Of a stretch of 64,000 nucleotides of DNA, positions 3,114 to 53,621 are shown one piece after another; positions within the stretch are counted from its first letter, which is position 1; every line of letters starts with the position of its first letter. Where the stretch lies: the NCBI GenBank assembly GCA_964534185.1, contig CAZHOH010000002.1, positions 10,558 to 74,557 of the forward strand, written 5' to 3'. The stretch comes from Candidatus Woesearchaeota archaeon. GTDB taxonomy: Archaea; Nanobdellota; Nanobdellia; Pacearchaeales; GW2011-AR1. The position numbers and the translations under genes were made by a program. Below the pieces are notes generated by a model, which was not told where the DNA came from, did not search any database, and saw nothing but the letters and a program-made list of their open reading frames with translations.

Positions 3114-3135
3114 GCCTCTGCTCCTTCATGAGTGC

Positions 3136-3163: not shown

Positions 3164-3334
3164 GACTTAGTAATTGGCGGTAATTGGACGCCCGGTATCA
3201 CGTAAAGTATAGAAGGATGGACGTCCGTAGCCGCCATTTTTAAAGGCAATTGGGAAACCGCTTATTTAGAAGGATGGCTTCCCGCATCCTCTTCGCCTTA
3301 AACATTATAGCAATAGAAGGCGCACGCGCAAGTT

Positions 3335-12943: not shown

Positions 12944-12954
12944 GCGTCGGCAAA

Positions 12955-12988
12955 GAGGCCCCGGAGCAACCGGGGCCTCTTTGCCTTA
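12955..12988. terminator. hairpin AAGAGGCCCCGG-AGCAA-CCGGGGCCTCTT, terminator-like on both strands
   Basis: Perfect inverted repeat read directly. It is followed on the plus strand by tgccttattttt, and it lies between two minus-strand genes. Confidence 0.4.
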
Positions 12989-20722: not shown

Positions 20723-20822
20723 GGTCCGCGCGCCTTGGAAAGTTACTTGGGTCCGCGCCGGAGCACGGCGGCGTGACACTAAGTAAAAAAGACAGACTTT
20801 TGTCTTGACCAAGGAGCGCGCT

Positions 20823-21467
20823 ATGAGTAACCTGACTTTCCGCTACCCCGACGACCCCGCACGGATGCCGGCGGACCAACTCCCCAGACTGGAGAGAATG
20901 AGTCCGGGTCTATGGTGGGGGTTTACAAAGGGTGACGGATGGCGACGGCCTGCCTACTGCGAAGGGAGTGGAGTCTGGACGTTCCACTCGAAGCGCGGTG
21001 ACGGAATCGAGGCCCGCAAGTCCCCTCCCAAGGGGCTAGTCGAACTTTTCTCCGCGATGGATTGGCCTGAAGGTATCGCCATCGACATGGAGTGGATGGG
21101 GCCCCGGCTACGGGAACATTTCCCAACCGAAGACGACCACGAGTTCTGGATCTTCGACATGACCTACTGCGCGTGGAAATGGCAGGGAAAGACACCCTTT
21201 GCAAAAAGGTGGGTGCACCTGTCAGAAATCTTCCACGACGCGGCCCGCGGCAAACCCGAGAACTTCCCCCGGGTGAGGCTGCTGGCGCCCTACAAGGAGA
21301 ACCTGGCGCAGGCGTTCGAGCAGGAACAAGCAAACCCCCTGTCCGAGGGCCTGGTTCTGCGGCACGTCCGAGGGCACCTCGTTGGCGACCTCAACGGACC
21401 CAGGAAGAATCCGGGCGCCATGAAGAAAGTAAAGTACCGGAACGCGAAAGAGAAGACTGCATTCTAA
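20823..21467 (+). CDS. minimal ATP-dependent polynucleotide ligase (nucleotidyltransferase domain only)
   Basis: FTKGDGWR (motif I KxDGxR), WIFDM (III), EGLVLRH (IV), MKKVKY (V). Start reset to ATG 20823 with an AAGGAG RBS. At 214 aa there is no room for an OB domain. Confidence 0.65.
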   Translation: MSNLTFRYPDDPARMPADQLPRLERMSPGLWWGFTKGDGWRRPAYCEGSGVWTFHSKRGDGIEARKSPPKGLVELFSAMDWPEGIAIDMEWMGPRLREHFPTEDDHEFWIFDMTYCAWKWQGKTPFAKRWVHLSEIFHDAARGKPENFPRVRLLAPYKENLAQAFEQEQANPLSEGLVLRHVRGHLVGDLNGPRKNPGAMKKVKYRNAKEKTAF

Positions 21468-21483
21468 TTATGATTCCGAGTTG

Positions 21484-21504
21484 CTCCCGGGTTTTGCCCG
21501 GGAG
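21484..21504 (+). promoter_or_regulatory. 8-bp GC hairpin CTCCCGGG-ttttg-CCCGGGAG between the ligase and sigma genes
   Basis: Read directly. It sits 17 nt after the ligase stop and 27 nt before the sigma ATG. No U-tract. Confidence 0.35.
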
Positions 21505-21531
21505 ATGATTGAAAGAAAAAGGAGGATGACC

Positions 21532-22407
21532 ATGGGCAGAGGCAACGAGAAGGACGATATTCGCTTGTATCTCGAGCAAGCAGGGGAGTATGAATTGCTT
21601 ACGCGCGATGAGGAGATGCGTCTCGCGAGGGCCTGGCGTGAGAACCATGACGAGACAGCACGAGAGAAACTTGGCTTGCATAACCTGCGTCTTGTCGTGA
21701 GCATCGCCGTCAAGTACACGTGCTCCTTCATGTCTCTCATGGACTTCATCCAGGAGGGCAACATCGGGCTGATGAAGGCGATCGACAAGTTCGACCCAGA
21801 CAGGGGAAACAGGCTCTCCACCGTCGCTACTTGGTGGATATGGCAGTCGATCGGTCGCGCGGTAAGCGAGAAAGGCGGCAACGTAATCCGGCTCCCCGTC
21901 AATACGAGGAACATCCTGCACAAGTTCAGCAAGACCAAGTCGGAACTCGCCCACAGTCTCATGCGCGACCCGGAAGACGAGGATGTCATCGAGGCGATGG
22001 ACCTGTCGGAGCCCCAGGAGGCGTGCCTGAGGAACGCTTTGGCTTCCAGGGTCGTCTCCGTGGAGGACGAAGAGAGTAGCTGCGGGATCGAGAACCTCTT
22101 CGGAGAGCTCGAGGAGAACATCTCTGAGTTCGATGACTACCGGGTAAGGGACGCCATCAGCATTGCGCTTAACAGCAAGGAGCGCATGATCATCAGCCTC
22201 CGCTACGGGCTAGACGACGGCAAGCAACGCACGCTCGATACGGTGGGCCAAGAGCTCGAGCTGACGAGGGAGCGCGTCCGCCAGATCGAAAGCCAGGCCC
22301 TGGACAAATTGTCGCTCTTCCTGTCAGGGTCGCTTATTTATTTAAATCCACGCCACTCGGGCAAATCCGGCTTGCAGCAGGACTGCAAATCAGGAGTTGA
22401 CTGCTGA
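21532..22407 (+). CDS. sigma-70 family RNA polymerase sigma factor
   Basis: DFIQEGNIGLMKAIDKFDPDRGNRLSTVATWWIWQSI (regions 2.2-2.4) and LDTVGQELELTRERVRQIESQALDKL (region 4.2). ATG 21532 lies 6 nt after GGAGG. Confidence 0.9.
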   Translation: MGRGNEKDDIRLYLEQAGEYELLTRDEEMRLARAWRENHDETAREKLGLHNLRLVVSIAVKYTCSFMSLMDFIQEGNIGLMKAIDKFDPDRGNRLSTVATWWIWQSIGRAVSEKGGNVIRLPVNTRNILHKFSKTKSELAHSLMRDPEDEDVIEAMDLSEPQEACLRNALASRVVSVEDEESSCGIENLFGELEENISEFDDYRVRDAISIALNSKERMIISLRYGLDDGKQRTLDTVGQELELTRERVRQIESQALDKLSLFLSGSLIYLNPRHSGKSGLQQDCKSGVDC

Positions 22408-23355: not shown

Positions 23356-25599
23356 TCAGTTGTCAATTTCTTGATCCACGTCCACCCACTGGTTGGCCAA
23401 GGGGTAGATGACCTTCATGATCGCCTTGTCAATTCTATGGCTTTTCCCGTTGATCATGTGCCATATTACCCCCCTCAAAACGGCCGGGGCATCTTTCTGG
23501 GCGATTCCTAGCTTCTTCTTGGCCTGCGAGTCGCCCTTGTCGTAGTGCTTGGCCAGAAAGTCGTTGGCCATGGCCAAGATCCTAGACTTTGCCTCGTCGT
23601 ACTGGGACTCGATCTTGTCCTTGTATTGCTCGGCCAGTTCGCGCATTTCCTCCGGAATCTCGGCCATTCGAGACTCCGAGACCTTGCCGTCCGACATCGC
23701 CTCCCACATCAAGATGGGCGAGAGGCCCATCATGACCTTCGACATGTCCTTGTACCAGTCGGTCTTGACCTTTACCCTGCGGCCGTCCTGAAACCTTATG
23801 ACGTACCCCTCGAAGTGCTTGGCTTTACTCGCCACCTCCAGGCAGTCTTCCAGGCTCAGCGAGTCGTAGCGCCGAACGACATGCAAATCGGCCAGTCTGG
23901 CCCACTCCTCGACCAGGTCGCGCGGGTACTCCTCCCCGGTATGGCGGTTGAAGGCCGCCAGCACGTAGAGCCCCGTCTCGTCGTAGTCCAGGATGATCTT
24001 CTGGTCATGATTGATGATCTCGAAGACCAGCGTCGCCTCGTCCGGCAAGGCCGACAGGTTCTTGCGCGAGATGTACTGTGTGGCCCACTGCGACCCAGGG
24101 GAATGGAACGACCCCCGGCTGGCCACCTTGTACTCGCCCTGGTGGCGGTAGAGGACGCCAAGCCATCCATCCAGCTTCTCGTAGACCTCGTAGGGCTTGT
24201 CCCACGGGAGGTTCTCGCGAAGGGTCTCCTCGCGCTCCCCGAGGTTGAAGAACTTTGGAAACGCCCAGGCCACGCACTCCCCCGTCTCAAGATCATAGAT
24301 GTGGCCACGGCAGTTCAGCGTCACGTCGTCCCAGGCGCGATCGAATACACACTGGTCGGTATAGGTGTAGATCGCCAGCCTGTCGTCGTCCGTCCTGTCC
24401 CCGCGCAGCAGGCCCGCCTCCATGTACGCCTCCCTGCGGGCGACGTGCTCGTGGGGGTTCTCCTTACACCCGGGGAAGGAGTTCGTCGCGTAGGCGCGCT
24501 TGGCCTGGACGTAGTGGGGCCGCTGGGTAGCGGAGTCCCAGAACTTCAGGTACCCGCCGAACACGCAGCCGCCGTCAAGGTGGGCGATGTTGTTATAGCA
24601 TGGCCCCGCGGGGTCGGGGTTGTGCCCGAAGAAGACCCTCGGGGCGTCGGACGGCCATAGACGGTTCCACAAGATCCCCGTCTGCGCGTCGAAGTAGGAG
24701 TCCCCTCCGTAGTAGCGCATGTAGAGGCAGTCGGACCTGAACTGCTCGTCCGGGTCTCGCGTCGGGTCGAATCCCGCGTGGACAACGTAGCCATGGGGAA
24801 CCCGGAGGATCAGTGGGCAGCCCTTGAGGAAGGAGACGAACTCATCCTTTACCTGCTCGCCGTCCTCGTCCTGCTGGAACGAGTCGATCGTTGCCTGCAG
24901 GCCATGGGCTAGCTTGACCGGGTTGCCCTTGGCCCAGCGCAGGAACTTGTCCTCGTGGTTTCCAAGGACCATGTGGAGGTTGAGGGACATGAGGTGTCGC
25001 ACCACCCCCAAGGGGTCTGGCCCTCGGTCGATGACGTCCCCTACCGAGACGAGCACGTCCTGCTCGGGACGAAACCCAAGCTCGACGAGGCCCTGCTGAA
25101 ACTCGTCATAGCACCCGTGTATGTCGCCGACGATGATGTAGCGGCGGCCCCCGATCTCATCGCGGACGTCCTTAACGAGGACGCTGCACGGGGCTTCGCC
25201 CTCTACTGTCAACTCGTCGGCCTCCCTCCTCGATGGCGCCTGGAACTGCGAGAAGTACATGCCGAGGGCCTTTCCCGCGTTCTCCGGGCGCAGCGTGGGA
25301 TGTTTGCCACGCGAGGCGATCCTCTCGCGGCACACGTCGCAGTTCTCGTTCAGCCATACGATCTTAGTGTGATAACCGGCCTTCTTGGCGGGAGACAGGT
25401 ACCGGCGCCGCTGCTGGCGATTGTGGTTGATGCGGTCGACGACGACGTTGTCCCCGCGCGCCACTGCCTCCTCGAACAGGCGCAGGTGATCCTTGCCCTG
25501 ATCGTCCTGGGAAACCCGCACGTAGCCCTTGAGGTTCTTGTCGCAGTAAGTCGTCTTGCCCGACCCCTGCGGGCCAACCATCAGCACGAGATCGCTCAT
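23356..25599 (-). CDS. trifunctional polynucleotide kinase / metallophosphoesterase / RNA-ligase-type protein (Pnkp-like)
   Basis: N-terminus: GPQGSGKTT (P-loop kinase). Middle: VGDIHGC, GDVIDRGPD, GNHE (calcineurin-like phosphatase). C-terminus: YEKLDGWLGV (KxDG adenylyltransferase motif I). AAGGAGG RBS. Confidence 0.85.
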   Translation of the reverse strand: MSDLVLMVGPQGSGKTTYCDKNLKGYVRVSQDDQGKDHLRLFEEAVARGDNVVVDRINHNRQQRRRYLSPAKKAGYHTKIVWLNENCDVCRERIASRGKHPTLRPENAGKALGMYFSQFQAPSRREADELTVEGEAPCSVLVKDVRDEIGGRRYIIVGDIHGCYDEFQQGLVELGFRPEQDVLVSVGDVIDRGPDPLGVVRHLMSLNLHMVLGNHEDKFLRWAKGNPVKLAHGLQATIDSFQQDEDGEQVKDEFVSFLKGCPLILRVPHGYVVHAGFDPTRDPDEQFRSDCLYMRYYGGDSYFDAQTGILWNRLWPSDAPRVFFGHNPDPAGPCYNNIAHLDGGCVFGGYLKFWDSATQRPHYVQAKRAYATNSFPGCKENPHEHVARREAYMEAGLLRGDRTDDDRLAIYTYTDQCVFDRAWDDVTLNCRGHIYDLETGECVAWAFPKFFNLGEREETLRENLPWDKPYEVYEKLDGWLGVLYRHQGEYKVASRGSFHSPGSQWATQYISRKNLSALPDEATLVFEIINHDQKIILDYDETGLYVLAAFNRHTGEEYPRDLVEEWARLADLHVVRRYDSLSLEDCLEVASKAKHFEGYVIRFQDGRRVKVKTDWYKDMSKVMMGLSPILMWEAMSDGKVSESRMAEIPEEMRELAEQYKDKIESQYDEAKSRILAMANDFLAKHYDKGDSQAKKKLGIAQKDAPAVLRGVIWHMINGKSHRIDKAIMKVIYPLANQWVDVDQEIDN

Positions 25600-25656: not shown

Positions 25657-26646
25657 TCAATCGTCGATGCGGCTCAATAGGTCTGATTTGAGCGCGTCGG
25701 GCAATGCCTTCAAAATAAGCAGCCATTCCTCTGTGTTTTTGACGGGATGAAGAGTGAATATCTCGTTGGCCCTTGAAATGGCTTGATTTGCGACCCCGGG
25801 GCCTACGCGACCCTCAGCCACGTCGTAATGGAGCCTTTTCTCGTCCTCGTAATAGCAGACTCTCTCGGATAAAGGTTTGGTTTTTCGAGCCTCAAATCTA
25901 GCCTTTCTCAGATATATACCGAAGAACAACTCGCTGCTAGTAATCGTATTGTCACGCATGACGAGAGGGAATGTGTTGCCTGGGATCTCATTCAGGACGA
26001 GAGATACAGCCCTGCGTGATAGCCACCAGAAATGGCCCTGAAGAGAATGCAGGCAACCTATGTTAGGAACGTCTCTATGGTTCCTCTGCCATTGCTCCGA
26101 TGCATTGTCGTACCTCTTTCTGATCAGTTTGGGCAGGTAGCGCACCAGTAAGCCTGACACGTCATACGGGGCAGCATCATGGCGCAAGATCAGGGTGTCC
26201 GGGTCTACGACGGCCAGAAAATCCGAGTCGCCCTGATTGATGAATTTACGAAAAATGTCCCTGTACGAGGAGAAGAGGTGATGCCTGTTGTCTCCGGCAA
26301 AGACGCTCAGCGGTAGTCCTACGTCGGGCAGTTTCCTTTCGCGACGCTGGCATATCCATACATTACCAACGTTTTGAAAGGCGGTAACGGCGAGCCTGAG
26401 GCATCTGTGGATGACCTCGTCCGGCTCGTCATAGACCAAAGCAGCCACGTCTATCTTCATTTTTCTTCTAGGGGCGCCTCCCGTCGCAAGCACCGAACCG
26501 ATCCCCTCGACCTCAACCTGCTTGGCCTTGGCCTTGGCCTTGGCCTTGGCTTTGGCCGGAGGATTGAGCGAGAAGCCCCAGCACCTCTCAGATCCGTAGG
26601 AGCAACCTCGTCCCCCGGGGGACGAGGTTTTTCTTTGTCGAGCCAT
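25657..26646 (-). CDS. GT-A-like glycosyltransferase carrying the shared 31-aa N-terminal module and an (AK)n linker
   Basis: MARQRKTSSPGGRGCSYGSERCWGFSLNPPA + AKAKAKAKAKAK + a body with FLAVVDPD (DxD-like). TAGGAGG RBS. Confidence 0.65.
   Translation of the reverse strand: MARQRKTSSPGGRGCSYGSERCWGFSLNPPAKAKAKAKAKAKQVEVEGIGSVLATGGAPRRKMKIDVAALVYDEPDEVIHRCLRLAVTAFQNVGNVWICQRRERKLPDVGLPLSVFAGDNRHHLFSSYRDIFRKFINQGDSDFLAVVDPDTLILRHDAAPYDVSGLLVRYLPKLIRKRYDNASEQWQRNHRDVPNIGCLHSLQGHFWWLSRRAVSLVLNEIPGNTFPLVMRDNTITSSELFFGIYLRKARFEARKTKPLSERVCYYEDEKRLHYDVAEGRVGPGVANQAISRANEIFTLHPVKNTEEWLLILKALPDALKSDLLSRIDD
26521..26556 (-). repeat. hexanucleotide microsatellite (GCCAAG)x6 in frame, encoding (AK)6
   Basis: Plus strand reads cttggc x5 then tttggc. 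Confidence 0.9.
26604..26629. repeat. 26-nt perfect palindrome AACCTCGTCCCCCGGGGGACGAGGTT (copy A)
   Basis: Read directly. Identical copies are at 28763-28788 and 49612-49637. It covers roughly codons 6-14 of the shared N-terminal module. Confidence 0.9.
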
Positions 26647-26701
26647 GTTGCCTCCTACCAGCCTGTTGGGATGCCGAGAGAAAAATCCCTTCCAGGAGAT
26701 G

Positions 26702-26731
26702 TTACATTCAACTTCAAGTGGCCCGTATAAT
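26702..26731 (+). promoter_or_regulatory. candidate promoter giving a leaderless methyltransferase mRNA
   Basis: TTACAT (26702-26707), 18 nt spacer, TATAAT (26726-26731). The ATG at 26738 is 7 nt after the -10 box, and no RBS lies between. Confidence 0.4.
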
Positions 26732-26737
26732 TACGGA

Positions 26738-27880
26738 ATGAACATCGTATCGCTGTTTACGGGAGCCATGGGGCTAGATCTGGGGCTAGAGGCCGCGGGC
26801 TTCCAGGCCGAGGTATGCGCCGACACCGACCGGTTCTGCCGCGAGACCATCGCCGCCAACAAGCCAGAGTCCAGGATCCTCGATGACGTCGCCAAGGTAA
26901 CGATAGACACGGCGCCGCGAAACCCCTGCATAGTGGCAGGGGGGCCTCCCTGCCAGTCATGGTCGACGGCCGGCAGGCGCAAGGGGTTCGACGACCCCCG
27001 GGGGGAACAAGTCCTAGAGTTTGGGCGGGTGGTTGCCGACTTGCGGCCCCGCTTTTTCGTGATGGAGAACGTGCGCGGACTCACCTCCATGCTGACCGGC
27101 GACAACCGCTTGGCCATAAACGTCATAGAGGAAGAGTTCGAGTCCATCGGCTACAAGGTGGTCCGCGGCGTGCTGAACGCGGTCGACTATGGAACCCCAC
27201 AGTTTCGGGACAGACTCATCATGATCGGATCCCGCGACGGCGAAGACATCTTCCTGCCATTGCCCACGCACTTCCAGAAACACCAGGAAGAAAGCATGAG
27301 GTGGGTGACTCTTGGCAAAGCCCTCCAGGGCATAGCCATAGATTCCCCGGGGGACTTCCAGGAATTCTCGCCCCGGCGCAAATCATGGCTGGAGAAGATC
27401 CCCCCGGGGGGGAATTGGAAGAGCCTGTCGGAGCAAGACCAGAGGAAGGCCATGGGAGAGGCCTACAACTCTGGGGGAGGCAAGACAGGCTTCTTCCGCC
27501 GGTTGTCCTACGACGAGCCCTCCCCGACGCTGGTGACCTCGCCGACGCAGAAATCCACGATTTTGTGCCACCCGGAGAAAACCCGCCCCCTAAGCACGCT
27601 GGAATACGCGCGGATACAGGACTTCCCCCGGGGGTGGAGCATACGGGGGAACACAACGGAAGTCTACAGGCAGATAGGGAACGCCGTCCCCGTCAGGCTT
27701 GGGCGCGCAATCGGGCAGGCGTTGCTCTCGACCATGAGCAAAAGCCACGTGGTAAAGGCCTCCCGCGTGCGCAAAGACGCCAGCGAGGAAGAAAGGACGC
27801 CAGTCCGCCCGCGCAAGAGAGCGGAGGAAGAAGAGCTCACCAAAGCAGGCATGGAGGCCTGGGGGATGCAAGATGTTTGA
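26738..27880 (+). CDS. DNA (cytosine-5)-methyltransferase
   Basis: SLFTGAMGLDLG (I), GGPPCQSWS (IV), FFVMENVRG (VI), QFRDRLIMIG (VIII), YRQIGNAVPV (X). Start reset to ATG 26738. Confidence 0.92.
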   Translation: MNIVSLFTGAMGLDLGLEAAGFQAEVCADTDRFCRETIAANKPESRILDDVAKVTIDTAPRNPCIVAGGPPCQSWSTAGRRKGFDDPRGEQVLEFGRVVADLRPRFFVMENVRGLTSMLTGDNRLAINVIEEEFESIGYKVVRGVLNAVDYGTPQFRDRLIMIGSRDGEDIFLPLPTHFQKHQEESMRWVTLGKALQGIAIDSPGDFQEFSPRRKSWLEKIPPGGNWKSLSEQDQRKAMGEAYNSGGGKTGFFRRLSYDEPSPTLVTSPTQKSTILCHPEKTRPLSTLEYARIQDFPRGWSIRGNTTEVYRQIGNAVPVRLGRAIGQALLSTMSKSHVVKASRVRKDASEEERTPVRPRKRAEEEELTKAGMEAWGMQDV

Positions 27881-28658
27881 CGATTTGAACGTAACCACCG
27901 AAGTAAAAAAGGCGTGGGTTAACCGATTCAAAGCATTTGAACACGGAACTGCCTACCTTCTTCCATACAAGGTCAAACAGATCCGCAAAGTAGTTGTTCG
28001 CGCCGTGGAACCAGAATACGAACTTGAAATGTCATCCGGTAACAAGGTTATAGCCGACCTAAAAAACCAACTGACGCCTTTCTTCTCGGTCAACAGCCAG
28101 CTAGACGCAATGCTCAGGCTTCCTGAGGAAACGTTGCGCGCAATCAAGGAGGCCGGACTGATCGGCAAGGGCATGGCCCGAAGGGACATGGTGCACCCTG
28201 GATTCTCGCGGCTGGAGGACGCCGTCTCCATCAACGTCAAGACCATAGTCAAGTATCCCCGGGATACTGCCCTGATAATCGTGGTGTCCTGGAACAAGCC
28301 TTGGAAAGGCAGAATGGCCAATGATCCCGTCAACTCAATCTACGCAACTACGGTCGGCAAGGTCAGGGACCTTGTTGCGGACCGGCCTCTTGTTCACTGT
28401 TACAAGAGACGTTTGCCCGTAAAGGACGGGGTCGAAGTATACCCGAGCACCGTGGAAGAGCTCTGTTACTCGCCGATCAATGACGAGAATGGAGAAAGAA
28501 ACTCAGCGGCATCGGCCATTCTGGACATCAATGACTTCAAAAGGATCGCGACCTTCGACCCCGATTGGCTTGAAGAAACAAAACGTGTTGGCGAACGCTT
28601 GCACGAACAAGCCCTTCAGGACAAGAAAAAAGAACTAACCGACTTCCTGGGCTTCTGA
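27873..28658 (+). CDS. hypothetical protein translationally coupled to the methyltransferase (261 aa)
   Basis: The ATG at 27873 overlaps the MTase stop by 8 nt. No catalytic motif recognised. Confidence 0.6.
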   Translation: MFDDLNVTTEVKKAWVNRFKAFEHGTAYLLPYKVKQIRKVVVRAVEPEYELEMSSGNKVIADLKNQLTPFFSVNSQLDAMLRLPEETLRAIKEAGLIGKGMARRDMVHPGFSRLEDAVSINVKTIVKYPRDTALIIVVSWNKPWKGRMANDPVNSIYATTVGKVRDLVADRPLVHCYKRRLPVKDGVEVYPSTVEELCYSPINDENGERNSAASAILDINDFKRIATFDPDWLEETKRVGERLHEQALQDKKKELTDFLGF

Positions 28659-28745
28659 TGTTAAAACGAGCCCCCTCCACGTCCCCCCGGGGCGCCAGGG
28701 AAGGAATTTTTCTCTCGGCATCCCAACAGGCTGGTAGGAGGCAAC

Positions 28746-31127
28746 ATGGCTCGACAAAGAAAAACCTCGTCCCCCGGGGGACGAGGTTGTTCCTACGGAT
28801 CCAAGAGGTGCTGGGGCTTCTCGCTCAATCCTCCGGCCGCGGCCCCACGTCAGGCCAAGGTCGAGGCCAAGGTCAAGGCCAAGGTCAAGGCCAAGAACAA
28901 GGAGGAAGAGACGGTCATCGAACTAGCCTCATTGAACCCGGACGTCGTCTACTCGACCCAAGGCGGCGGGTTCGGCGACCACTGGCTCCTCTGCGGCGCT
29001 CTCCTACAGGCAAGTGAACTGCATGGCAAGCCATTCAGGCTGCGCCGGGGCAAGACGAGGGGTGAACCAAGGCCTTTCGCCGTGGACTACCAGGAGTACT
29101 TCGACACGCAAGGAGAGATCGTCGAGTCGGACAGCGAAGCCAAAGTCGTATTCTTCTCCAGGGATGGCGGCAAGAACGACCTCGAAAGGCTCATGAAAGA
29201 CGGGTATGACAATCCTGTCCCGGAGCGCATCATCCCCTGGAACTACCTTTTCGAGGTTCCCCTTGCCAAGACAAGAAAAACACACCTTGGATTGCGCTCC
29301 AGGGTCATCGCCTATCAGTTCAGGGCCAGATCCAGAAAGGACATCAAGGAATGCGCCCCCGGGGAGGAGGATCGCTTCCTGGAGGAGGCGGCGCTCGCCG
29401 GCTATAGAACGATCGAGGTAGGGAAGCATGTCCCCTTGGATAGATGTTTGGAAGTTCTGTCATGGTGCGAGTTCTACGTCGGCATAGACACAGGACCTAC
29501 CCACCTCGCGCTCAACGTCGGCGCGCCGACGTGGGTCGTCCGCAACGGCGCCGACCTTGACTTTACATACAAGCATAGGAACATCACCGCGCTTCCGCGC
29601 CTCGGGGACGCAGGCTCTCTCCTGACGGCCTGCCAGCCACAAAAGAAAGCCTCCTTCCTCGTCCCCTGCAAGAACCGCTTGGAGTTTGCCAAGCAGACTC
29701 TCCCTCTGCTGGATTTCTTCGTGGGACAGGGGCACGAGGTCATATTCGTGGACTACGATTGCCCGCAACGATCAGGGGAGTGGGTCAAGAGCAACCATCC
29801 CGGCGTGACGGTCATCGAGGTAAAGGACAAGAAAAAGTATAACGCTGGAGAGGCTCGCAACCTAGCGGCCGCGGCGGCTAGGAACGACTGGCTTTGCTGG
29901 ATGGACTGCGACATAAAAGTCCATCCGAACTTCCTGGCCGAGCTGTGCCGCCTGGAAAAAGGCCAGTTCCTGTTCTTCGCCAAGAACGACCTCGTCCCCC
30001 GCAGGGGGATGGGTGGCTTGATGGCATGCTCCCGAGACGCGTATTACGAAGCAGGAGGCTACAGCAGTTACTACGACGAGTACGGCGGCAAAGACATAGA
30101 GTTCAAGTACAGGCTCTTCCAGAACGGAGAGGAGCCGCTGCAAGTCAACCCGCTCTGCGTCGAGCACGTCCCGCACCCTGATCATCTAAGGGTTCAGTTC
30201 TACGACAAGAAGAACCGACGGCTCGCGATCAAGGACAGCAACGCGGCGCTCAAGCAACGCATGCGGCACTTCGCAAAGAGAAACGAGCCACCCCCGTGGC
30301 AATTGAACTATGACAAGGCCGAGTACTCTCAGTTCTTCAACAAGGTCATCGTCAAACAACTTAGCCTTCATGTCACCGACCATTGCAACTTCAACTGCAT
30401 CGGGTGCAACCACGCTTCCCCATACTACGAGCCGAACAATCTCGACCCGGTATGCTTCTCGGAGCCGCTCCAGAAACTGGGGGAATTCTGCTACGCCAAG
30501 GAAATACACCTAGTTGGAGGAGAACCCTTCCTGCACCCTGACCTGTACGGATTCATCCGCTCCATCAAGGAGAGCAACAAGGTAAGCGACTTCATTCGCC
30601 TCTATACAAACGGCTTCTGGCTGTCAGAGCGCGGCCTGCTGCGTCACGCGCCAGTCCTCGACCAAATAGATGCGCTTCATGTCAGCATGCACCCCGAGTC
30701 CCCCGGGGGCGAGGTTGTTGAACAGATGCTGAGAACGATCAAGAAGAAACATCACATAGTGGCCCAGAAACACCGTAACGACAGGTTTTACAAGGTCGGG
30801 TTTCGAGAATCCCCCGCTGGGAGAGGATCCTGTCCCGTCAAGAAGTGCATGCACCTGTTGCCTGACGGAAGACTGGTCAAATGTGCCGTCGCGGGCTACT
30901 ACGCCCCGAAAAGCGAGGATGTTACGAAAGGCTTCATGGACCATTCCGGATCCGCTTTCTACGATGTGTCCCAGGGAAATTGCGAAAGCTTTGCCAAGTG
31001 GTATAATGGCATGGCTCAGTGCTGCAGGTTCTGTGGCTACGCGGAAGACTCCATACCATACGTGGGCAGAGTTGCAGGAGTTGGTCATGTCAAGAATCAG
31101 CGGAACAAAAGAGTGGGCGACGGATAG
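28746..31127 (+). CDS. multidomain protein: shared N-terminal module + GT9-like + GT2 + radical SAM (SPASM/twitch-like Cys tail)
   Basis: MARQRKTSSPGGRGCSYGSKRCWGFSLNPPA. GGGFGDHW...VGIDTGPTHLALNVGAP (GT9/heptosyltransferase-like). FLVPCKN...WMDCD (GT2 DxD). HCNFNCIGC (CxxxCxxC). C-terminal CPVKKC...C...CCRFCGY. Confidence 0.8.
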   Translation: MARQRKTSSPGGRGCSYGSKRCWGFSLNPPAAAPRQAKVEAKVKAKVKAKNKEEETVIELASLNPDVVYSTQGGGFGDHWLLCGALLQASELHGKPFRLRRGKTRGEPRPFAVDYQEYFDTQGEIVESDSEAKVVFFSRDGGKNDLERLMKDGYDNPVPERIIPWNYLFEVPLAKTRKTHLGLRSRVIAYQFRARSRKDIKECAPGEEDRFLEEAALAGYRTIEVGKHVPLDRCLEVLSWCEFYVGIDTGPTHLALNVGAPTWVVRNGADLDFTYKHRNITALPRLGDAGSLLTACQPQKKASFLVPCKNRLEFAKQTLPLLDFFVGQGHEVIFVDYDCPQRSGEWVKSNHPGVTVIEVKDKKKYNAGEARNLAAAAARNDWLCWMDCDIKVHPNFLAELCRLEKGQFLFFAKNDLVPRRGMGGLMACSRDAYYEAGGYSSYYDEYGGKDIEFKYRLFQNGEEPLQVNPLCVEHVPHPDHLRVQFYDKKNRRLAIKDSNAALKQRMRHFAKRNEPPPWQLNYDKAEYSQFFNKVIVKQLSLHVTDHCNFNCIGCNHASPYYEPNNLDPVCFSEPLQKLGEFCYAKEIHLVGGEPFLHPDLYGFIRSIKESNKVSDFIRLYTNGFWLSERGLLRHAPVLDQIDALHVSMHPESPGGEVVEQMLRTIKKKHHIVAQKHRNDRFYKVGFRESPAGRGSCPVKKCMHLLPDGRLVKCAVAGYYAPKSEDVTKGFMDHSGSAFYDVSQGNCESFAKWYNGMAQCCRFCGYAEDSIPYVGRVAGVGHVKNQRNKRVGDG
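28854..28901 (+). repeat. 12-nt in-frame tandem repeat (GCCAAGGTCRAG)x4 encoding AKVE/AKVK
   Basis: gccaaggtcgag gccaaggtcaag gccaaggtcaag gccaagaacaag. Confidence 0.85.
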
Positions 31128-39884: not shown

Positions 39885-40247
39885 ATGAAGGGTCAGCCAT
39901 GCGAGAACCAGACAACGAAAGGAAATATCGTGGGGGACACAGAAGATACACAGGCGATCAATGAGGCGATCAATGAGGCCATCGAACTGAATATAATGGG
40001 ACAGGTTGGAGATCGCGTTCCAGACTATTGTTCGTCGCTGGACGCCGTAGCGGAGGCAGAAGCCAAGGCAAGAGAGATGGGCCTATGGCACGAGTATGGA
40101 AGGGCGCTGAAGGATCTGCTCCTAGGCAACGCCGACCTGCTTGTAATGAGCACCGAGCAGTTCATGACAGGAGCTGCGGCCACGGCCGAACAGAGATCCC
40201 GGGCCATCCTGTCCGCTGTTAAACAAGCAAGGAAAGGAAAGAAGTAA
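39885..40247 (+). CDS. hypothetical protein (120 aa), C-terminal tail shared with the next gene
   Basis: Ends ILSAVKQARKGKK; the next gene ends FLSAIKQAREGKK. Confidence 0.45.
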   Translation: MKGQPCENQTTKGNIVGDTEDTQAINEAINEAIELNIMGQVGDRVPDYCSSLDAVAEAEAKAREMGLWHEYGRALKDLLLGNADLLVMSTEQFMTGAAATAEQRSRAILSAVKQARKGKK

Positions 40248-40283
40248 TGGCCAGGAGATTCTTCTACGACACAGAGTTCATAG
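40209..40283 (+). repeat. 75-bp direct repeat, copy 1
   Basis: ctgtccgctgttaaacaagcaaggaaaggaaagaagtaatggccaggagattcttctacgacacagagttcata. Four mismatches to copy 2. Confidence 0.9.
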
Positions 40284-40786
40284 AATATCCACCCCTGTTG
40301 AAGGACGGTCGATCCCGGAAGGGAACGATCGACCTAATAAGCATTGGCATCGTGTCAGAGGAAGGGGAGACGTTCTACGCCATCAACAGCCACTTCGATC
40401 CGACCATGGCCAACCAGTGGGTGACCGACAACGTCCTCTCGAAGCTCCCCTCGAGGGAGTCGCCGGAATGGATGTCCCTGCCGGCCATGAAGAAGAGGGT
40501 GCTAGGCTTCCTGCGGCCATCGAATGATGACCCGGTCGAGTTATGGGCATACTACGGGGACTATGACCACGTGGCCCTCTGCTGGTTATTCGGATCCATG
40601 GTCGAATTGCCAGAGGGAATGCCAATGCTAACCATGGATCTGAAGCAACTTGCCAAGCACCTCGGGGATCCTGACCTACCCGAGCAAGGGGAAGGAGAGC
40701 ACGATGCCCTCGAGGACGCTAAATGGAACCTCGAGGTCTTCGAGTTTCTGTCCGCTATTAAACAAGCAAGGGAAGGAAAGAAGTAA
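40247..40786 (+). CDS. DEDDh 3'-5' exonuclease (DnaQ-like fold)
   Basis: FFYDTEF (ExoI DxE), YYGDYD (ExoII), EHDALEDA (ExoIII Hx4D). TAATG start/stop overlap. Confidence 0.8.
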   Translation: MARRFFYDTEFIEYPPLLKDGRSRKGTIDLISIGIVSEEGETFYAINSHFDPTMANQWVTDNVLSKLPSRESPEWMSLPAMKKRVLGFLRPSNDDPVELWAYYGDYDHVALCWLFGSMVELPEGMPMLTMDLKQLAKHLGDPDLPEQGEGEHDALEDAKWNLEVFEFLSAIKQAREGKK

Positions 40787-40822
40787 TGGCCAGGAGATTC
40801 TTATACGACACAGAGTTCATAA
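40748..40822 (+). repeat. 75-bp direct repeat, copy 2
   Basis: 539 bp downstream of copy 1. Spans the exonuclease stop plus a second start. Confidence 0.9.
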
Positions 40823-46473: not shown

Positions 46474-46510
46474 GACTTCTCCGTTCTAGTCGAACATGTT
46501 AGGCGGCTCG

Positions 46511-48604
46511 TCACCACGTGGCGGCCAATCGAAAGGATAACACTCCGAAAGCGCACGCAGCAGCAACTGGGACGACGCCATTTCCCAGCAGGCGTAGCTG
46601 GTCTGTTCGACGCTCGTGGTCGAGTCTGTCCATCCCGGAGGCCACCCCATCAGCCATTCTACAAAGAGCGGGTTCAAGAAGCGGCTCGGCTTCAAGGACT
46701 TGCTCCCATTCCCTGAAGTCCCCTGGCCCCGGGGGCGCGAGGGGGAGGATTGTTCCAGATGGGCCTCGAAAACCTGCGACCACACCTTTGCCAGCGTCTC
46801 GACATGAACCTGATGGCTGCCGCTCTCCGACTGCCCCTTCCGAAGAACCTGCTCGACGCTCATAGCCCTGCCCCCGTTGGGCACGTTCGGCGTTGGCCAG
46901 AGACAGTTCCACACGTCGCTCCACATTTTCGCTACGACCTGGAGGCTCGTCGGAGTCTTCCGGGGGCCTCCCTTCATGCGCCGCTTCATCGCCATGTGGG
47001 CCCCAGGGGTCTTGTTGTCGTCGTTCGCCACCGCCGTTGGCCACAGCGGCCCATTCTGCCGCCCGGAGGATGGCCTCTTCTCCCGGTCTCGCGCCGGCGA
47101 TGAAGAGACGCTTTCGGACATGGCACAGTCCGACTTCCGCCGCCGAGAATAGTCCTGCTTCAACGTCGTAGCCCAGGCCTTGTAGGTCTCTGGCGACCTC
47201 GTCGAAGCCGACGTTAACGTGGTTGGGTACGTTCTCGAAAAAGAGGACGCGGGGTTCTGCCTCCTGGACGATCCTCCTGACGCTGGGCCAGAGGTGGCGG
47301 GGATCCTCCTTGCCCTTGATTCTCCCGGCACAGGAGAACGGCTGGCAGTTGTGGACGACAGTTCCGTCTGCCACGTAAGACTCATCGTCTCGGACTGCGA
47401 TGTTATAGACTGTGTCCTTGCCAACAGGGGCGTTTGAGCTGACGCGCTTCCATCCAAGACCTTGGTCGACGAAGGATGCACGATTGCGATCAGGGATGGA
47501 CACGATCCATGACGGCCTTTGTCTGACGAGTCTGCCTTCGATGACCTTATCTTTTGCGCTTTGGCAGCATCGAACGGCAGCAATGACCCCAAATGCTCGC
47601 TGAGAGAGCAGAGCGACACTGAGAGCAAGGGCCTTGCTCGCGGACTGAACTCGACGAAATCCCCCCTTTCCAACAGGGTTCTTATGTGCTCCTCCGTCTC
47701 CAGACAAGCATCCCTCAAGCAAGGCCCTGGCCTTTCCCTCTCCGAGGGAAAGGTACTTTCCGGGGATACGCTTGCCGCGGGCATGTCGTCCGAATTGCTG
47801 CAAGAACTTGAAGAAACATGTTCTTGTAATGGCGAATCTGGTTGTTGTTCGCTCCTCGCTCCTGTAGGCGCTAAGCCCTGCTTCTTGTATTCGCCTTTCA
47901 AGTTCGTCTGCCTCTGGTCTGTTGCAACAGATGTTGACACGACCATTTCTGTGGGAAGGAGATTTTTGGAGCCAACCGTCAGCCAAGTACCTCCCGACGA
48001 GCCACCAGAATTCTTTTGATCGTTTGTCTGGGCGCACTGGAGGGAGAGCCTGAGCCACCCAATGCGCTCCGGTGAGTTCCTTTGCCTGCACCCAATCAGG
48101 GGAACCAAAAGATCGCTGTCTTCCCTTTTGTTTGCACCTAGCGAAGAAGGGGTGCTCTTCTGTGCATCTGATTCCCGGGGTTCCTTGCGCCTTGATTTCC
48201 CTGATTGGGGCACCGTCCTTGCGCATGACCGCTGTGACTGGCTTCCATCTGGCTCGGTGGGTAAGGACCAGATCTCCAACTCGAACGTCTTCGATGGGGA
48301 CATATCCTCGCTTGCATAAGACGAGGGTTCCTGAGACGAAGCACGGGTACCCTCCAGTGACGCAATCCACGACGCCACGCCATCTTCTGCCGTCGAAGGT
48401 CTTGGCATCCGTCCAAATAGGCGCGTCGTCCAGCCGCCCTTCTTCCATGCGTGATGCCAGTACTTCGATGGCATATCCTTCCCTCTCCACGTAGCAGACG
48501 ACGCGAGAGCCTCCGACCGCCATTCGGAGTCCGAGCTCGAGTCCGCCGCCGCCGGAGCAGAGAGACAGAACGTTGAAGGTACGTATGCCCACATCTTTGT
48601 TCAT
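46511..48604 (-). CDS. DNA (cytosine-5)-methyltransferase interrupted by an intein
   Basis: LSLCSGGGGLELG (I), GGYP|C...HN|CQPFS (IV split), LFFENVPN (VI), RKRLFIAG (VIII), LLGNGVVP (X). See findings for the second open frame. Confidence 0.85.
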   Translation of the reverse strand: MNKDVGIRTFNVLSLCSGGGGLELGLRMAVGGSRVVCYVEREGYAIEVLASRMEEGRLDDAPIWTDAKTFDGRRWRGVVDCVTGGYPCFVSGTLVLCKRGYVPIEDVRVGDLVLTHRARWKPVTAVMRKDGAPIREIKAQGTPGIRCTEEHPFFARCKQKGRQRSFGSPDWVQAKELTGAHWVAQALPPVRPDKRSKEFWWLVGRYLADGWLQKSPSHRNGRVNICCNRPEADELERRIQEAGLSAYRSEERTTTRFAITRTCFFKFLQQFGRHARGKRIPGKYLSLGEGKARALLEGCLSGDGGAHKNPVGKGGFRRVQSASKALALSVALLSQRAFGVIAAVRCCQSAKDKVIEGRLVRQRPSWIVSIPDRNRASFVDQGLGWKRVSSNAPVGKDTVYNIAVRDDESYVADGTVVHNCQPFSCAGRIKGKEDPRHLWPSVRRIVQEAEPRVLFFENVPNHVNVGFDEVARDLQGLGYDVEAGLFSAAEVGLCHVRKRLFIAGARPGEEAILRAAEWAAVANGGGERRQQDPWGPHGDEAAHEGRPPEDSDEPPGRSENVERRVELSLANAERAQRGQGYERRAGSSEGAVGERQPSGSCRDAGKGVVAGFRGPSGTILPLAPPGPGDFREWEQVLEAEPLLEPALCRMADGVASGMDRLDHERRTDQLRLLGNGVVPVAAACAFGVLSFRLAATW
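47348..48343 (-). mobile_element. 332-aa class-1 intein with LAGLIDADG homing-endonuclease domain
   Basis: Starts CFVSGTLV (block A). Contains CTEEHPFF (block B TxxH), LVGRYLADGW and LLEGCLSGDGG (two LAGLIDADG motifs). Ends VADGTVVHN, followed by the +1 Cys of CQPFS. Confidence 0.85.
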
Positions 48605-48631: not shown

Positions 48632-49654
48632 CTACGGGGCCAGCCTCCTTTTGATTTCCTCGCGGACAAACACGCGCGTCGCGTCCAGTTTTTCCTGGAG
48701 AGTCATCTTATCCCGCTCCTTTCCCCAGTAGAGAACGCTCACGTCGGGCCTGTCATGGAGCGGAAGCCATCCTGGCACGTATAGTCCCCAGAACTCGTCT
48801 ACCGAGATCGCCGGCATACCAAAGGAAGGGGCAAGAAAGCCCCCGCCTCCCATGCTTAATGTAAACTCCGCCCCGCTCATTACCTCTAGCTGTCTCTGCA
48901 GGTACTCGGTTCGAACCGGCTTCTTCAGTGTCTCCAGAAACATAGTCTCGTTGCCAATCCTGTTACGGTCTACCCGATCCAGCCGATCTAGGCCCGTGTG
49001 TGGGGCCCAACCAACCCCGATGACTTCGTAGCCGTAGTGGTTGACCAACTCCTTTAATTCCAGCCATTCTAGGAAAGGCAGGCTCCTGCCTCCCGCCGTG
49101 CCACCAAACTCGTCTCCTTTCAGCCACCTTTCGGACAAGCAGGGTATGAAGCACACGTACTTGCGAGGATCCTTCTTGACCCAGGACCAGTCCATCTTCG
49201 CATTGACCAGTTCCCTCGGGAAGTCCCTCCGCATCTTGGAAAATAACTTCAGAACGGCGCTCTTTCCCGTCCCCTCCTTGGCCGGGAAATGATATGAATC
49301 GCTGAACTGGCTCCAAACCTCTTCCTTCAGGTCGTCAAGCCACTCGGAATGTATATTGACCTCGTCTCCGAGCCACCGCTTCAACAGGAAAGCTGGCCAT
49401 ATGCGGGTGACGCATACCTCGCCGAACTCACCGCCGTGAATGATGTTCCTAAGATCCAGATCTATCTTCTCCCTGGGACGGCGCAGAGGGGAGGCCTCAA
49501 CCTCCTCCTCAACCTTGGCCTCAACCTCCTCCTCCTCAACCTTGGCCTGACGTGGGGCCGCGGCCGGAGGATTGAGCGAGAAGCCCCAGCACCTCTTGGA
49601 TCCGTAGGAACAACCTCGTCCCCCGGGGGACGAGGTTTTTCTTTGTCGAGCCAT
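48632..49654 (-). CDS. GT9-like glycosyltransferase carrying the shared 31-aa N-terminal module and a VE/AK linker
   Basis: MARQRKTSSPGGRGCSYGSKRCWGFSLNPPA + AAAPRQAKVEEEEVEAKVEEEVEA + a GT-B-like body. Start reset to ATG 49654 with a TAGGAGG RBS. Confidence 0.65.
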   Translation of the reverse strand: MARQRKTSSPGGRGCSYGSKRCWGFSLNPPAAAPRQAKVEEEEVEAKVEEEVEASPLRRPREKIDLDLRNIIHGGEFGEVCVTRIWPAFLLKRWLGDEVNIHSEWLDDLKEEVWSQFSDSYHFPAKEGTGKSAVLKLFSKMRRDFPRELVNAKMDWSWVKKDPRKYVCFIPCLSERWLKGDEFGGTAGGRSLPFLEWLELKELVNHYGYEVIGVGWAPHTGLDRLDRVDRNRIGNETMFLETLKKPVRTEYLQRQLEVMSGAEFTLSMGGGGFLAPSFGMPAISVDEFWGLYVPGWLPLHDRPDVSVLYWGKERDKMTLQEKLDATRVFVREEIKRRLAP

Positions 49655-49906
49655 GTTGCCTCCTACCAGCCTGTTGGGATGCCGAGAGAAAAATTCCTTC
49701 CCCCGGGGGGCGCGGGAGGGCGTCCATGGCATCGCCGAGGAGGCCAAGCCCTATGCGCTCCTGTTGGCAGTGACGCGAGACTCGGGTGCGTCGGCATTCG
49801 TCAACCTAGTTCAGGATCGGTATGACCTTCACGTACCCGCGACGAGAGGGCCACAGCATGCACCATCCAAACATGATAGCCTCTGGCCTGTCGTACGAGA
49901 TCTCGG

Positions 49907-50641
49907 TCACTCCGTATGCGGTGATTCTTGGGTGCATGACACTATCCTGTTGGCTGTGACATAGGACTCGGGGGTGCCAGCGTCGGTCCACTCCCCATCC
50001 AGGCAGGCGATCCGCAGCTTGCCCTCCCGAACGAACTCCATGTTCAGATCAGTGACCTCTAACTCGCCGCGGTTGCTAGGCTGCAGCCTAGGCAACAAAG
50101 AGAAGGCATGCGGCGGGTAAAAATAGATGCCCGTCTGTGCCAGATTCGACCTTGGCTCCCGGGGCTTCTCCTCGATCGCGACGACGCGATCCTCGCTTAC
50201 CTCGACCACCCCGTACCTGCGGGGATCCTCGACTTCCTTGACGAGAATCATGGCGTGGTCGTCGGGCAGCGCGTCGTAGGACTGAACGAAAGGAAGCAGC
50301 GGATCCGAGAATATATTGTCGCCAAGGAGCACGCAGAACCGATCCCTGCCGACGAAGTCGTCGCACAACATAAGCGCTTGCGCTATTCCGCCCGCCTCGT
50401 CCTGGATGCGGTAGGTCAGCTCGCACCCCAGTTTCCTTCCGGAGCCGAGGAGCGCCATGAAGTCCCCGGAATGCTCGGGTCCGCAAATGACCATGATCTT
50501 TCGGATGCCGCCCTCGATGAGTTTGGCCAAGGGCCACATGATCATCGGCTTCATGCCGACGGGCAACAAGTGCTTGTTTGTCACCTGCGTCAGGGGGTGC
50601 AGCCTAGTGCCCGTGCCGCCGGCAAGGATGATTCCTTTCAT
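49907..50641 (-). CDS. sugar-1-phosphate nucleotidylyltransferase (RmlA/GalU-like)
   Basis: MKGIILAGGTGTRLHPLT and LLGDNIF. Start reset to ATG 50641. Confidence 0.85.
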   Translation of the reverse strand: MKGIILAGGTGTRLHPLTQVTNKHLLPVGMKPMIMWPLAKLIEGGIRKIMVICGPEHSGDFMALLGSGRKLGCELTYRIQDEAGGIAQALMLCDDFVGRDRFCVLLGDNIFSDPLLPFVQSYDALPDDHAMILVKEVEDPRRYGVVEVSEDRVVAIEEKPREPRSNLAQTGIYFYPPHAFSLLPRLQPSNRGELEVTDLNMEFVREGKLRIACLDGEWTDAGTPESYVTANRIVSCTQESPHTE

Positions 50642-53563: not shown

Positions 53564-53621
53564 CACGGATCCTCGCTAGATCGCCTAAAGGAAGGATATC
53601 CGCACGCGGCGTCCGTTGCAA

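Follow-up and report, generated by a model that had tools for sequence, protein, structure and literature searches.

Promoter-early stem-loop elements (PeSLs) of T4-type phages are repeated units that combine an AT-rich region, a sigma-70 promoter, a G/C-tract stem-loop terminator, a Shine-Dalgarno (SD) sequence and a start codon, and they mark places where close relatives differ by indels, and their copies recombine among themselves (PMC2839356, PMC4122927). In this paper we looked at a 64,000-nt stretch of the contig CAZHOH010000002.1 (the window), which covers 64 of the 107.7 kb of its source metagenomic contig (107,729 nt at NCBI) and which, to judge from its sequence, looks like part of an uncultivated large phage. 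In this window a near-identical module of 140-169 nt, composed of an untranslated leader with an SD sequence, a start codon and the first codons of the coding sequence, heads three enzyme genes (A, B and C) whose bodies are unrelated. An earlier reading of the same DNA, made without database searches (the sequence-only reading), had proposed either a shared regulatory RNA element or a shared targeting or substrate peptide. We find that this cassette is real, portable and recently copied or homogenised.

Constant gene heads are known from the Gin/G segment of phage Mu, from Cin of P1 and from shufflons; these systems have one constant head, one promoter, recombination sites of ~26-34 bp and an adjacent serine or tyrosine recombinase. 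The present locus is like them in having a constant 5′ head that could be joined to alternative bodies and inverted repeats at the boundary. The start-associated sequences (SAS) and extended SAS (ESAS) of Cluster K mycobacteriophages resemble the module in another way, as ribosome-binding-region sequences that are repeated upstream of unrelated phage starts and are presumed to act in translational co-regulation (PMC3203893). Further parallels are the encapsulation peptides of bacterial microcompartments (BMCs; PMC4594438, PMC12339742) and the capsid targeting sequence (CTS) of T4 (PMC3012670), in which a short N-terminal peptide followed by a poorly conserved linker is found on different enzymes. 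Such peptides are dispensable for catalysis and act as an address label (PMC4594438, PMC12339742, PMC3012670).

A portable gene head in front of three enzyme genes

Copies B and C of the module are 169 nt long and differ by a single synonymous mismatch (GTC/GTT at 28862), as found by repeat finding, alignment and blastn, and over the 164 nt from 28698 to 28861 they show no difference at all. Copy A has four mismatches to B or C in 140 nt: one in the leader, two that are synonymous (TGT/TGC and TCC/TCT) and K20E. Overall the identity among the three copies is 97-100%, leader included, and its upstream limit lies 48 nt before the ATG in B and C and 47 nt before it in A. The sequence-only reading had already reported these copies, the 164-nt identity and the four differences of copy A, all of which proved exact to the base by repeat finding and blastn; its coordinates for the three open reading frames (ORFs; Table 1) are correct, and the unrelatedness of the three gene bodies was confirmed by BLASTP. 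A 50-nt string that it had singled out occurs three times in the window, at 26644-26693 (minus strand, one mismatch), 28699-28748 (plus) and 49652-49701 (minus), with no occurrence expected in shuffled sequence. Three sub-motif searches, low-stringency blastn and tblastn gave no fourth or diverged copy in the 64 kb. Copies A and B are inverted repeats with 140-nt arms that stand 2005 nt apart, copies B and C are inverted repeats with 169-nt arms 20,667 nt apart, and A and C are direct repeats.

The same junctions between module and unique flanks are found in contigs of the Logan collection (SRR7048225). Contig L003 corresponds to window positions 26657-28727 at 100% and covers all of the interval that separates heads A and B; it ends 30-37 nt inside the two heads and retains the A-specific single-nucleotide polymorphism (SNP) of the leader on the A side. 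Contig L007 corresponds to positions 60641-49673 at 100% and stops 30 nt into head C, past a unique 204-nt spacer. Contig breaks exactly at the shared sequence are what is expected of a genuine repeat longer than k.

The cassette has four parts: a leader of ~48 nt with a consensus SD sequence, the start codon, 31 codons arranged around a palindrome, and an in-frame repeat linker. The leader, 47-48 nt long, runs into the gene as AGGAGG-N4-ATG, a motif and a spacing typical of this genome's genes. The 31 leader codons encode MARQRKTSSPGGRGCSYGS(K/E)RCWGFSLNPPA, a peptide with a net charge of +6 in B and C, where it has no acidic residue, and of +4 in A; 13 of its 31 residues are Gly, Ser or Pro (5 Gly, 5 Ser, 3 Pro), and it contains Trp/Phe/Tyr, two cysteines (Cys15 and Cys22) and several Ser/Thr. 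No helical periodicity was seen in it by inspection. The linkers of A, B and C are the highest-scoring tandem repeats in the window and the only K/A/E/V-rich stretches in any of its reading frames. Their net charge goes from strongly positive, (KA)6, to strongly negative in the E-rich case, and such widely differing charge argues against a conserved protein-level role of the linkers. A Sec, Tat or lipoprotein signal peptide was considered and rejected, since MARQRKTSSPGGRGCSYGSKRCWGFSLNPPA has, by inspection, no hydrophobic stretch of more than three residues and no L-x-x-C lipobox. AlphaFold2 models of C (from a two-sequence alignment) and of A (from a single sequence) reached a predicted local distance difference test score of ~33, with coil at residues 1-60 in one of them, and were not used.

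That the head was added to pre-existing genes is seen from two outgroups, which for C is a close relative and for B a distant homologue, set against the one genome that carries the module. A protein search with C returned C itself (P0001; NCBI calls the gene with the module) and one orthologue, P0002, a 280-aa protein with 81% amino acid identity over the body, which begins MIHLENCIHGGEFGEV and aligns with C from residue ~66 onwards. The orthologue is found on contigs L001 (JGI 3300037504) and L002 (Logan SRR12689834), which have neither module nor linker and share the gene order of the window, namely rmlA, the C orthologue and an intein-containing methylase; in both, the ATG of the C orthologue overlaps the rmlA stop (ATGA). 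L001 and the window have 79-80% nucleotide identity on both sides of the C junction, and between these flanks the window has a replacement block (Table 1) that holds a new C-terminal tail of rmlA, the 204-nt spacer, the module and the linker. No target-site duplication was found at this insertion, and the similarity at its left junction is not significant (p about 0.5). For gene B, residues 66-288 have a homologue (BLASTP 9e-14) in the huge phage LR756511.1, a stand-alone ORF of 241 aa in which residue 12 aligns with residue 66 of B, so that its Met falls at about residue 55 of B, the last linker residue; this ORF overlaps an RmlC-like gene by 4 nt. The comparison shows that the cassette was added in front of the presumptive natural N-termini of the enzymes, and the portability proposed earlier is upheld by the absence of the module from both the C orthologue and the stand-alone homologue of the first domain of B. 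On present evidence the cassette would have arisen after this lineage separated from that of the L001 phage, or else it was lost in the latter.

The window codon that aligns with the ATG of the relative is GAT, and the next in-frame start of C, TTG91, is already well within the conserved body, which makes C dependent on the module start. In gene B the starts that follow in frame are TTG63, which has no SD sequence, and GTG113. The sequence-only reading had stated that two of the genes have no other start codon, which is nearly right, apart from these TTG and GTG codons. Its consequence, that the module is translated, holds at least for C and very probably for B, and the module supplies the start codon of C and almost certainly that of B too. 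Gene A has GTG52 and ATG63 in frame. The latter, at 26460, stands directly before MKIDVAALVY, a typical beta-1 strand, and is probably the original start of gene A, still present. The 329-aa product of A is absent from the protein collection that holds B and C; no orthologue of A was found, and a chimeric query of A and B returned only B.

All three genes had been called glycosyltransferases. This is correct for B, in which a GT2 and a radical-SAM domain are detectable, together with weak SPASM/twitch-type matches and a first domain that is GT9-like below threshold. It is plausible for C, which has a weak GT9-type C-terminal motif in common with B and the huge-phage protein, and it is not supported for A, for which no family was found. 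Neither A nor C has a match in Pfam, PHROGs, NCBIfam or PDB sequences.

Searches for the module in other genomes were carried out at the DNA and the protein level. Neither module, hairpin nor peptide was found in INPHARED phages by blastn and tblastn, exact DNA scans of IMG/VR and of the GTDB genomes gave neither module nor hairpin, and back-translated scans with MARQRKTS, CWGFSLNP and others gave no leader peptide in IMG/VR and JGI metagenome contigs. A phmmer search of the 36-aa leader against 1.84 billion protein representatives returned only a spurious WD40-repeat match. A word-indexed search with a 40-aa peptide missed P0001 and P0003, both carriers in that database, and the representative search likewise missed the window's own proteins, so that the protein-level negatives are the weaker ones and those at the DNA level are solid. 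The earlier statement that no described family has this leader agrees with the lack of a match in Rfam, Pfam/PHROGs/NCBIfam, phages, IMG/VR, JGI, GTDB and the protein representatives, and on present evidence the element appears to be specific to this phage lineage.

Table 1. Positions in the window of the module copies, their palindromes and linkers, the carrier genes and the block that replaces the relative's junction (aa, amino acid residues)
Feature	Position	Strand	Description
Module copy A	26554-26693	-	140 nt; ATG at 26646; without the AAPRQ segment
Module copy B	28698-28866	+	48-nt leader 28698-28745; SD AGGAGG 28736-28741; ATG at 28746
Module copy B, coding part	28746-28838		31 leader codons, then AAPRQAKV(E), common only to copies B and C
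Module copy C	49534-49702	-	ATG at 49654
Palindrome in copy A	26604-26629		same palindrome as in copy B; terminator polarity on + strand
Palindrome in copy B	28763-28788		perfect palindrome/hairpin AACCTCGTCCCCCGGGGGACGAGGTT; codons 7-14 (TSSPGGRG); AAAGAAAAA directly before
Palindrome in copy C	49612-49637		same palindrome as in copy B; terminator polarity on + strand
Linker A	26521-26557	-	in-frame tandem repeat (GCCAAG)x6.2, giving (KA)6
Linker B	28852-28902	+	in-frame tandem repeat (GCCAAGGTCAAG)x3.7, giving AKVEAKVKAKVKAKNKEEE
Linker C	49495-49534	-	in-frame tandem repeat, 12-nt unit x3.3, giving EEEEVEAKVEEEVEA
Gene A	25657-26646	-	329 aa; module and (KA)6 linker, then a body of no known family
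Gene B	28746-31127	+	793 aa; module and linker aa 1-55; called with the module in the NCBI record
Gene B, domains			GT9-like ~aa 56-290; GT2 ~303-400 and 422-462; radical SAM with Cys-rich tail ~536-790
Gene C	48632-49654	-	340 aa; module, linker and 12 residues (ASPLRRPREKID) are aa 1-66, then body
Replacement block	49442-49943	-	502 nt in place of 30 nt of the L001 rmlA/C junction

The palindrome and the initiation region

The palindrome within the leader codons has the form (AA)CCTCGTCCCCCGGGGGACGAGG(TT); it is 22-26 nt long and GC-rich, with GGGGG/CCCCC at its centre. As RNA it gives a perfect stem of 11 bp with a 4-nt loop (dG -19.4 to -22.3 kcal/mol) at +18 to +43, and the A-tract at its flank has A in 8 of 9 positions. 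Perfect Watson-Crick stems of at least 11 bp are found at five loci in the 64 kb, three of which are the modules, where first-order Markov simulations expect 0.13. Intrinsic-terminator character is seen only antisense to the three genes, where the 11-bp stem and 4-nt loop are followed by TTTTTCTTTG and make the top terminator-like site in both scanned regions; the sense-strand tail, TTGTTCC in B and C or TTGCTCC in A, fails the terminator scan. The hairpin with its antisense terminator character is non-random; the sequence-only reading had overlooked it, as well as the tandem-repeat linkers and the long inverted repeats that the copies form. No antisense ORF ends at this terminator (by inspection it would span only 18 codons), and the shared sequence showed no promoter for the antisense direction.

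Among the other long hairpins of the window, from a search that allowed G-U pairs, are two intergenic ones. One (3135-3164) lies in the 5′ leader of a 698-aa gene, 20 nt upstream of its SD sequence. The other (12949-12985) has a 16-bp stem between two minus-strand genes and a T-tract on the plus strand, antisense like the module hairpins.

The codon usage of the leader was scored with a log-odds table built from 27 ORFs of the window and applied in windows of 31 codons. The leader frame scores -0.20 per codon. In-frame windows have a mean of +0.35 (standard deviation 0.23) and only 3.6% of them are as low as the leader, off-frame windows have a mean of -0.35 (standard deviation 0.21) and 21% of them are as high, and the first 31 codons of genes have a mean of +0.16, with 2 of 24 below the leader. 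By this measure the leader does not resemble sequence that has long been coding in this genome.

Partition-function folding of each copy in four contexts paired the SD sequence at p > 0.9 in every one of them. The partners are UCCUAC at +44 to +50, AAUCCUCC at +79 to +87, which adjoins the shared 3′ boundary at +93, and C-runs upstream. This suggests that the initiation region is sequestered, as far as such predictions go. Rfam gave no match at its gathering threshold anywhere in the window, and around the module its hits are at chance level only (E >= 0.76).

The sole clear promoter nearby is TTACAT-N18-TATAAT (26695-26740, plus strand); its end is 6 nt upstream of the methylase ATG at 26738, and it is divergent from gene A and reads through the methylase and orf261 towards B. 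A methylase ATG that comes 6 nt after TATAAT implies a leaderless or near-leaderless mRNA.

Expression cassette, protein tag or recombination scar

As to the choice between a regulatory element and a targeting peptide, the evidence from the three near-identical copies leans to an element of the nucleic-acid level, because of the perfect palindrome with its A-tract and the atypical codon usage. The explanation that we prefer, at a probability of roughly 40%, is that the module is a recently propagated expression or 'gene-head' cassette whose peptide is largely a passenger. Recombination most probably placed the cassette, as DNA, on the 5′ ends of three unrelated enzyme genes, before their natural N-termini, and recent copying or gene conversion followed. 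C and almost certainly B now take their ribosome-binding site and only usable start codon from the cassette, so that their products would carry an N-terminal extension of ~55-66 aa. Selection would act mainly on the nucleic-acid part, through which three sugar-enzyme genes spread over 24 kb may have been given one translation-initiation region. The stable hairpin that they share could be a common translational throttle, a regulator-binding site or a roadblock, and as a polar terminator it would let sense transcription pass and stop antisense or incoming transcription. In the relative, C appears translationally coupled to rmlA, a coupling from which the cassette would have released it. The basic, Gly/Ser/Pro-rich peptide would be tolerated and held at a distance from the enzyme by a slippage-prone repeat linker.

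Several observations weigh against a regulatory cassette. No sigma-70-type promoter was found in or beside any module copy, the AT-rich motifs and two-hexamer combinations of the leader are absent upstream of other genes, and neither an operator-binding protein nor an RNA-binding regulator was identified for the module. The terminator polarity is antisense, and the present map shows no obvious antisense transcript for it to stop. The predicted pairing partner of the SD sequence shifts with context, and the minimum free energy of the 164-nt module is not below that of shuffles (z = -0.76); given both, we do not claim a defined riboregulator. The coding differences between A and B/C, few as they are, are synonymous in two of three cases, which is weakly protein-like, and the three near-identical copies show no covariation. 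Finally, all three recipients appear to be enzymes from a single functional area, which a shared protein tag would explain equally well. On the promoter, the phage encodes a sigma-70-family factor of its own (21481-22407, plus strand, with regions 1.2, 2 and 4), so that the leader may contain a non-canonical one, as may other sites in this phage.

Among known expression cassettes the PeSLs are closest. Like them, the module is a short cassette with SD sequence and start codon, whose near-identical copies head unrelated large-phage genes; it has a stem-loop of a G-tract and a C-tract (C5/G5) with terminator character; it marks a difference from a relative, with 502 nt in place of 30 at the rmlA/C junction of L001/L002; and for PeSLs too, recombination among the copies has been proposed as the way in which genes are spread and shuffled. 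However, PeSLs are intergenic and end at the start codon, whereas the module runs on for 93-120 coding nt and a linker and produces N-terminal fusions. A strong sigma-70-like (or Mot-type) promoter is part of a PeSL, and the module has no detectable one. In a PeSL the stem-loop precedes the promoter or is contained in it and ends sense transcription that comes from upstream, while that of the module lies at codons 7-14 and has its T-tract antisense only. Moreover, PeSLs occur in dozens of copies, as against three in this window. The module was therefore rejected as a PeSL on promoter, intergenic location and stem-loop position and could by analogy be, at most, a variant of the PeSL idea that reaches into coding sequence. 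From SAS and ESAS it differs in that these are a 13-bp motif and an imperfect extended motif, with no shared coding leader, no hairpin-encoding palindrome and no linker. In the 2011 Cluster K study of Pope and colleagues the SAS reportedly lies wholly upstream of the start codon, at many genes.

The main alternative, which we consider somewhat less likely, is that the module is a shared N-terminal protein tag, a basic and disordered peptide of 31 aa that tethers or targets three enzymes of one glycosylation pathway to an anionic membrane face, to DNA, to a scaffold or to the capsid interior, with the linker as flexible or helical spacer. The DNA identity would then merely reflect how recently the tag was copied. 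Such a tag is suggested by the arrangement itself, in which tag, variable linker and enzyme meet at the natural N-terminus in three unrelated enzymes, by the linkers being unique to the carrier genes, and by the required translation in B and C, and two of the three coding substitutions are synonymous. The recipients are among sugar-nucleotide genes and two of them are GT9-like; GT9 enzymes act at the membrane. There are also precedents for an N-terminal peptide and linker on different enzymes in BMC encapsulation peptides (PMC4594438, PMC12339742) and the T4 CTS. However, the similarity among those is at the protein level only, while in the module it extends to the nucleotides and takes in the 5′ leader. 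BMC peptides are amphipathic helices of ~18 aa and the T4 CTS has ~10 aa followed by a protease site, whereas the module peptide is rich in Gly/Ser/Pro and not helical; to our knowledge it has no sequence similarity to any CTS. The prohead-protease site is L/I-x-E in T4 and S/A/G-x-E in phiKZ-like phages, and the linkers of the module contain K-V-E / E-V-E. Neither protease nor head genes were found in the 64 kb, nor any BMC or encapsulin domain in the Pfam-scanned ORFs of the window. It also speaks against a tag that a perfect palindrome of 22-26 nt with an A-tract is very unlikely to arise within 93 coding nt if protein function has shaped the sequence. The leader has an off-frame-like codon usage, the linkers go from strongly basic to strongly acidic, and no homologous peptide was found in any database searched. 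The peptide lacks a hydrophobic core, an amphipathic helix and any known cleavage motif, and genes for a shell, a protease or a scaffold were not seen in the window.

A neutral recombination scar is unlikely. Here the module would be the native 5′ end of one gene, either B or a gene beyond the window, which reached the others by illegitimate or microhomology-mediated recombination at GCCAAG-type repeats, was then homogenised by gene conversion and is tolerated without a dedicated function. The copies diverge by 0-3%, as against ~20% between the phage and its relative, and the relative does not have the element, for which no wider distribution was found either; this would fit a recent accident. 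A second junction repeat is also present in the window, two copies of 74 nt at 40209-40282 and 40748-40821 (plus strand) with 96% identity, which means that such recombination occurs in this genome. But accident would hardly be expected to graft the head in frame, at least twice independently, onto genes of related function and each time just ahead of the natural N-terminus, and C has lost its original start and now cannot do without the cassette.

This 74-nt repeat covers the last codons of one gene, an SD sequence and the ATG with some 12 codons (MARRF(F/L)YDTEFI). Between the two copies lies a gene for a 179-aa Rv2179c-like exoribonuclease, and the downstream one heads only a truncated duplicate ORF; the arrangement looks like a duplication or insertion scar.

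Another option, which we hold to be quite unlikely, is a recombination switch, or plug-board, in which exchange between the inverted heads re-wires which enzyme body stands behind a promoter and thereby varies glycosylation across the population. An A/B exchange would invert the 2.0-kb methylase-orf261 segment and a B/C exchange 20.7 kb, and every arrangement would be functional because the head brings with it a common ribosome-binding site, N-terminus and polar insulator. The geometry is suitable: A/B and B/C form inverted repeats of 140 and 169 nt with 97-99% identity, the promoter at the A-proximal end of the 2-kb segment reads towards B and none is visible for A, B and C themselves, and the polar hairpins would block transcription that enters the segment and pass transcription that leaves it. 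The central GGGGG/CCCCC palindrome is also similar to the stem-loops with G/C tracts at which PeSLs have been proposed to recombine. Such a switch would be shufflon-like and of a new design, as every variable body keeps a constant head of its own; in contrast to the Gin, Cin and shufflon systems, each body here has a full head and the repeats are 140-169 nt long. No invertase or other recombinase was found in the Pfam-scanned ORFs of the 64-kb window, which is part of the 107.7-kb contig. The assembly has a single orientation, and the Logan contigs end at the repeats, carry no linkage information and cannot reveal a mix of orientations. Exchange between the direct repeats A and C, moreover, would delete 23 kb.

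Very improbable is the idea that the two-Cys leader is a fused substrate, similar to ribosomally synthesized and post-translationally modified peptides, that is modified by the radical-SAM or glycosyltransferase domains. Gene B does have GT2 and radical-SAM domains, and the leader does have Cys15, Cys22 and several Ser/Thr. Yet a radical-SAM domain is lacking in two of the three carriers, and we found neither a separate precursor gene or leader/core organisation nor a family match for the peptide, whose sequence is largely dictated by the palindrome and whose codon usage is atypical; for the self-modification that the sequence-only reading had raised, nothing was found beyond the two Cys and the radical-SAM domain in one carrier of three.

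An assembly or duplication artefact, which would have made the module less interesting and for which one can point to the metagenomic source of the contig, can practically be dismissed, since two independent Logan contigs reproduce the three flank/module junctions at 100%, copy-specific SNP included, and all three fusions are in frame in intact genes.

Phage setting and wider meaning

The conserved 698-aa protein of the window is closest to that of an uncultured faecal phage fragment (39%) and to those of jumbo phages such as XacN1, SCTP-2 and LR745208. Genes for sugar nucleotides and glycans include rmlA, GT2, UDP-GlcNAc 2-epimerase, DegT, FkbM, sulfotransferase, SASA and GNAT genes, and the window also encodes an NAD-dependent DNA ligase, an SbcD-like exonuclease, two C5 methylases and several radical-SAM proteins. 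At ~55350-64000 (minus strand) there is a glycan-biosynthesis island with GT2, UDP-GlcNAc 2-epimerase, SASA esterase, FkbM methyltransferase, sulfotransferase, DegT aminotransferase and GNAT genes. The GC content of its third codon positions (GC3) is 0.45-0.56, as against 0.7-0.87 elsewhere in the window, which suggests that the island may have been acquired separately. In the 595-kb uncultured phage LR756511.1 (136886-140503; L008) the GT9-like homologue is translationally coupled to a gene for an RmlC-like cupin, an arrangement that mirrors the coupling of rmlA and C in L001; dTDP-sugar genes with a small GT9-like transferase coupled to them may thus recur as a module in huge phages.

Next to gene C, the C5 methylase of 697 aa (46511-48604, minus strand) has an intein (Hint_2 / Intein_splicing) directly after its GGYPCF motif, and the intein is also present in the related phage contig L001 (1179-1510). 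A second stop-free ORF of 702 aa (46486-48594, minus strand), Ser-rich and in another frame, overlaps this methylase ORF over its full length, while the off-frames of other window genes of 470-790 codons have 4-29 stops each; the alternative frame is also open across the 110 codons visible in L001. Other genes of the window are a protein with PARP catalytic and WGR domains (8421-9995, minus strand), here in a phage context, and an RNA-repair set. The latter comprises a 747-aa fusion of polynucleotide kinase, phosphatase and RNA ligase (23356-25599, minus strand), a second, weak RNA-ligase-like ORF (20805-21467, plus strand) and an RlaP-family nucleotidyltransferase (52496-53566, minus strand).

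What the gene heads mean for the phage depends on which part of them is at work. If the inverted copies do recombine, they would be a new type of phase-variation device. If the peptide is a functional tag, it would be a new and compact address label for phage glycosylation enzymes, and it could be used as a fusion tag. If the module is regulatory, it would carry the notion of mobile expression cassettes, as in PeSLs and SAS, over into coding sequence, and 'orphan' N-terminal extensions could then be by-products of nucleic-acid elements, which calls for caution in annotation and in taking shared N-termini for targeting signals. In any case, with an outgroup at hand, the locus shows a large phage re-heading its genes, from translational coupling to an autonomous gene start that is shared.

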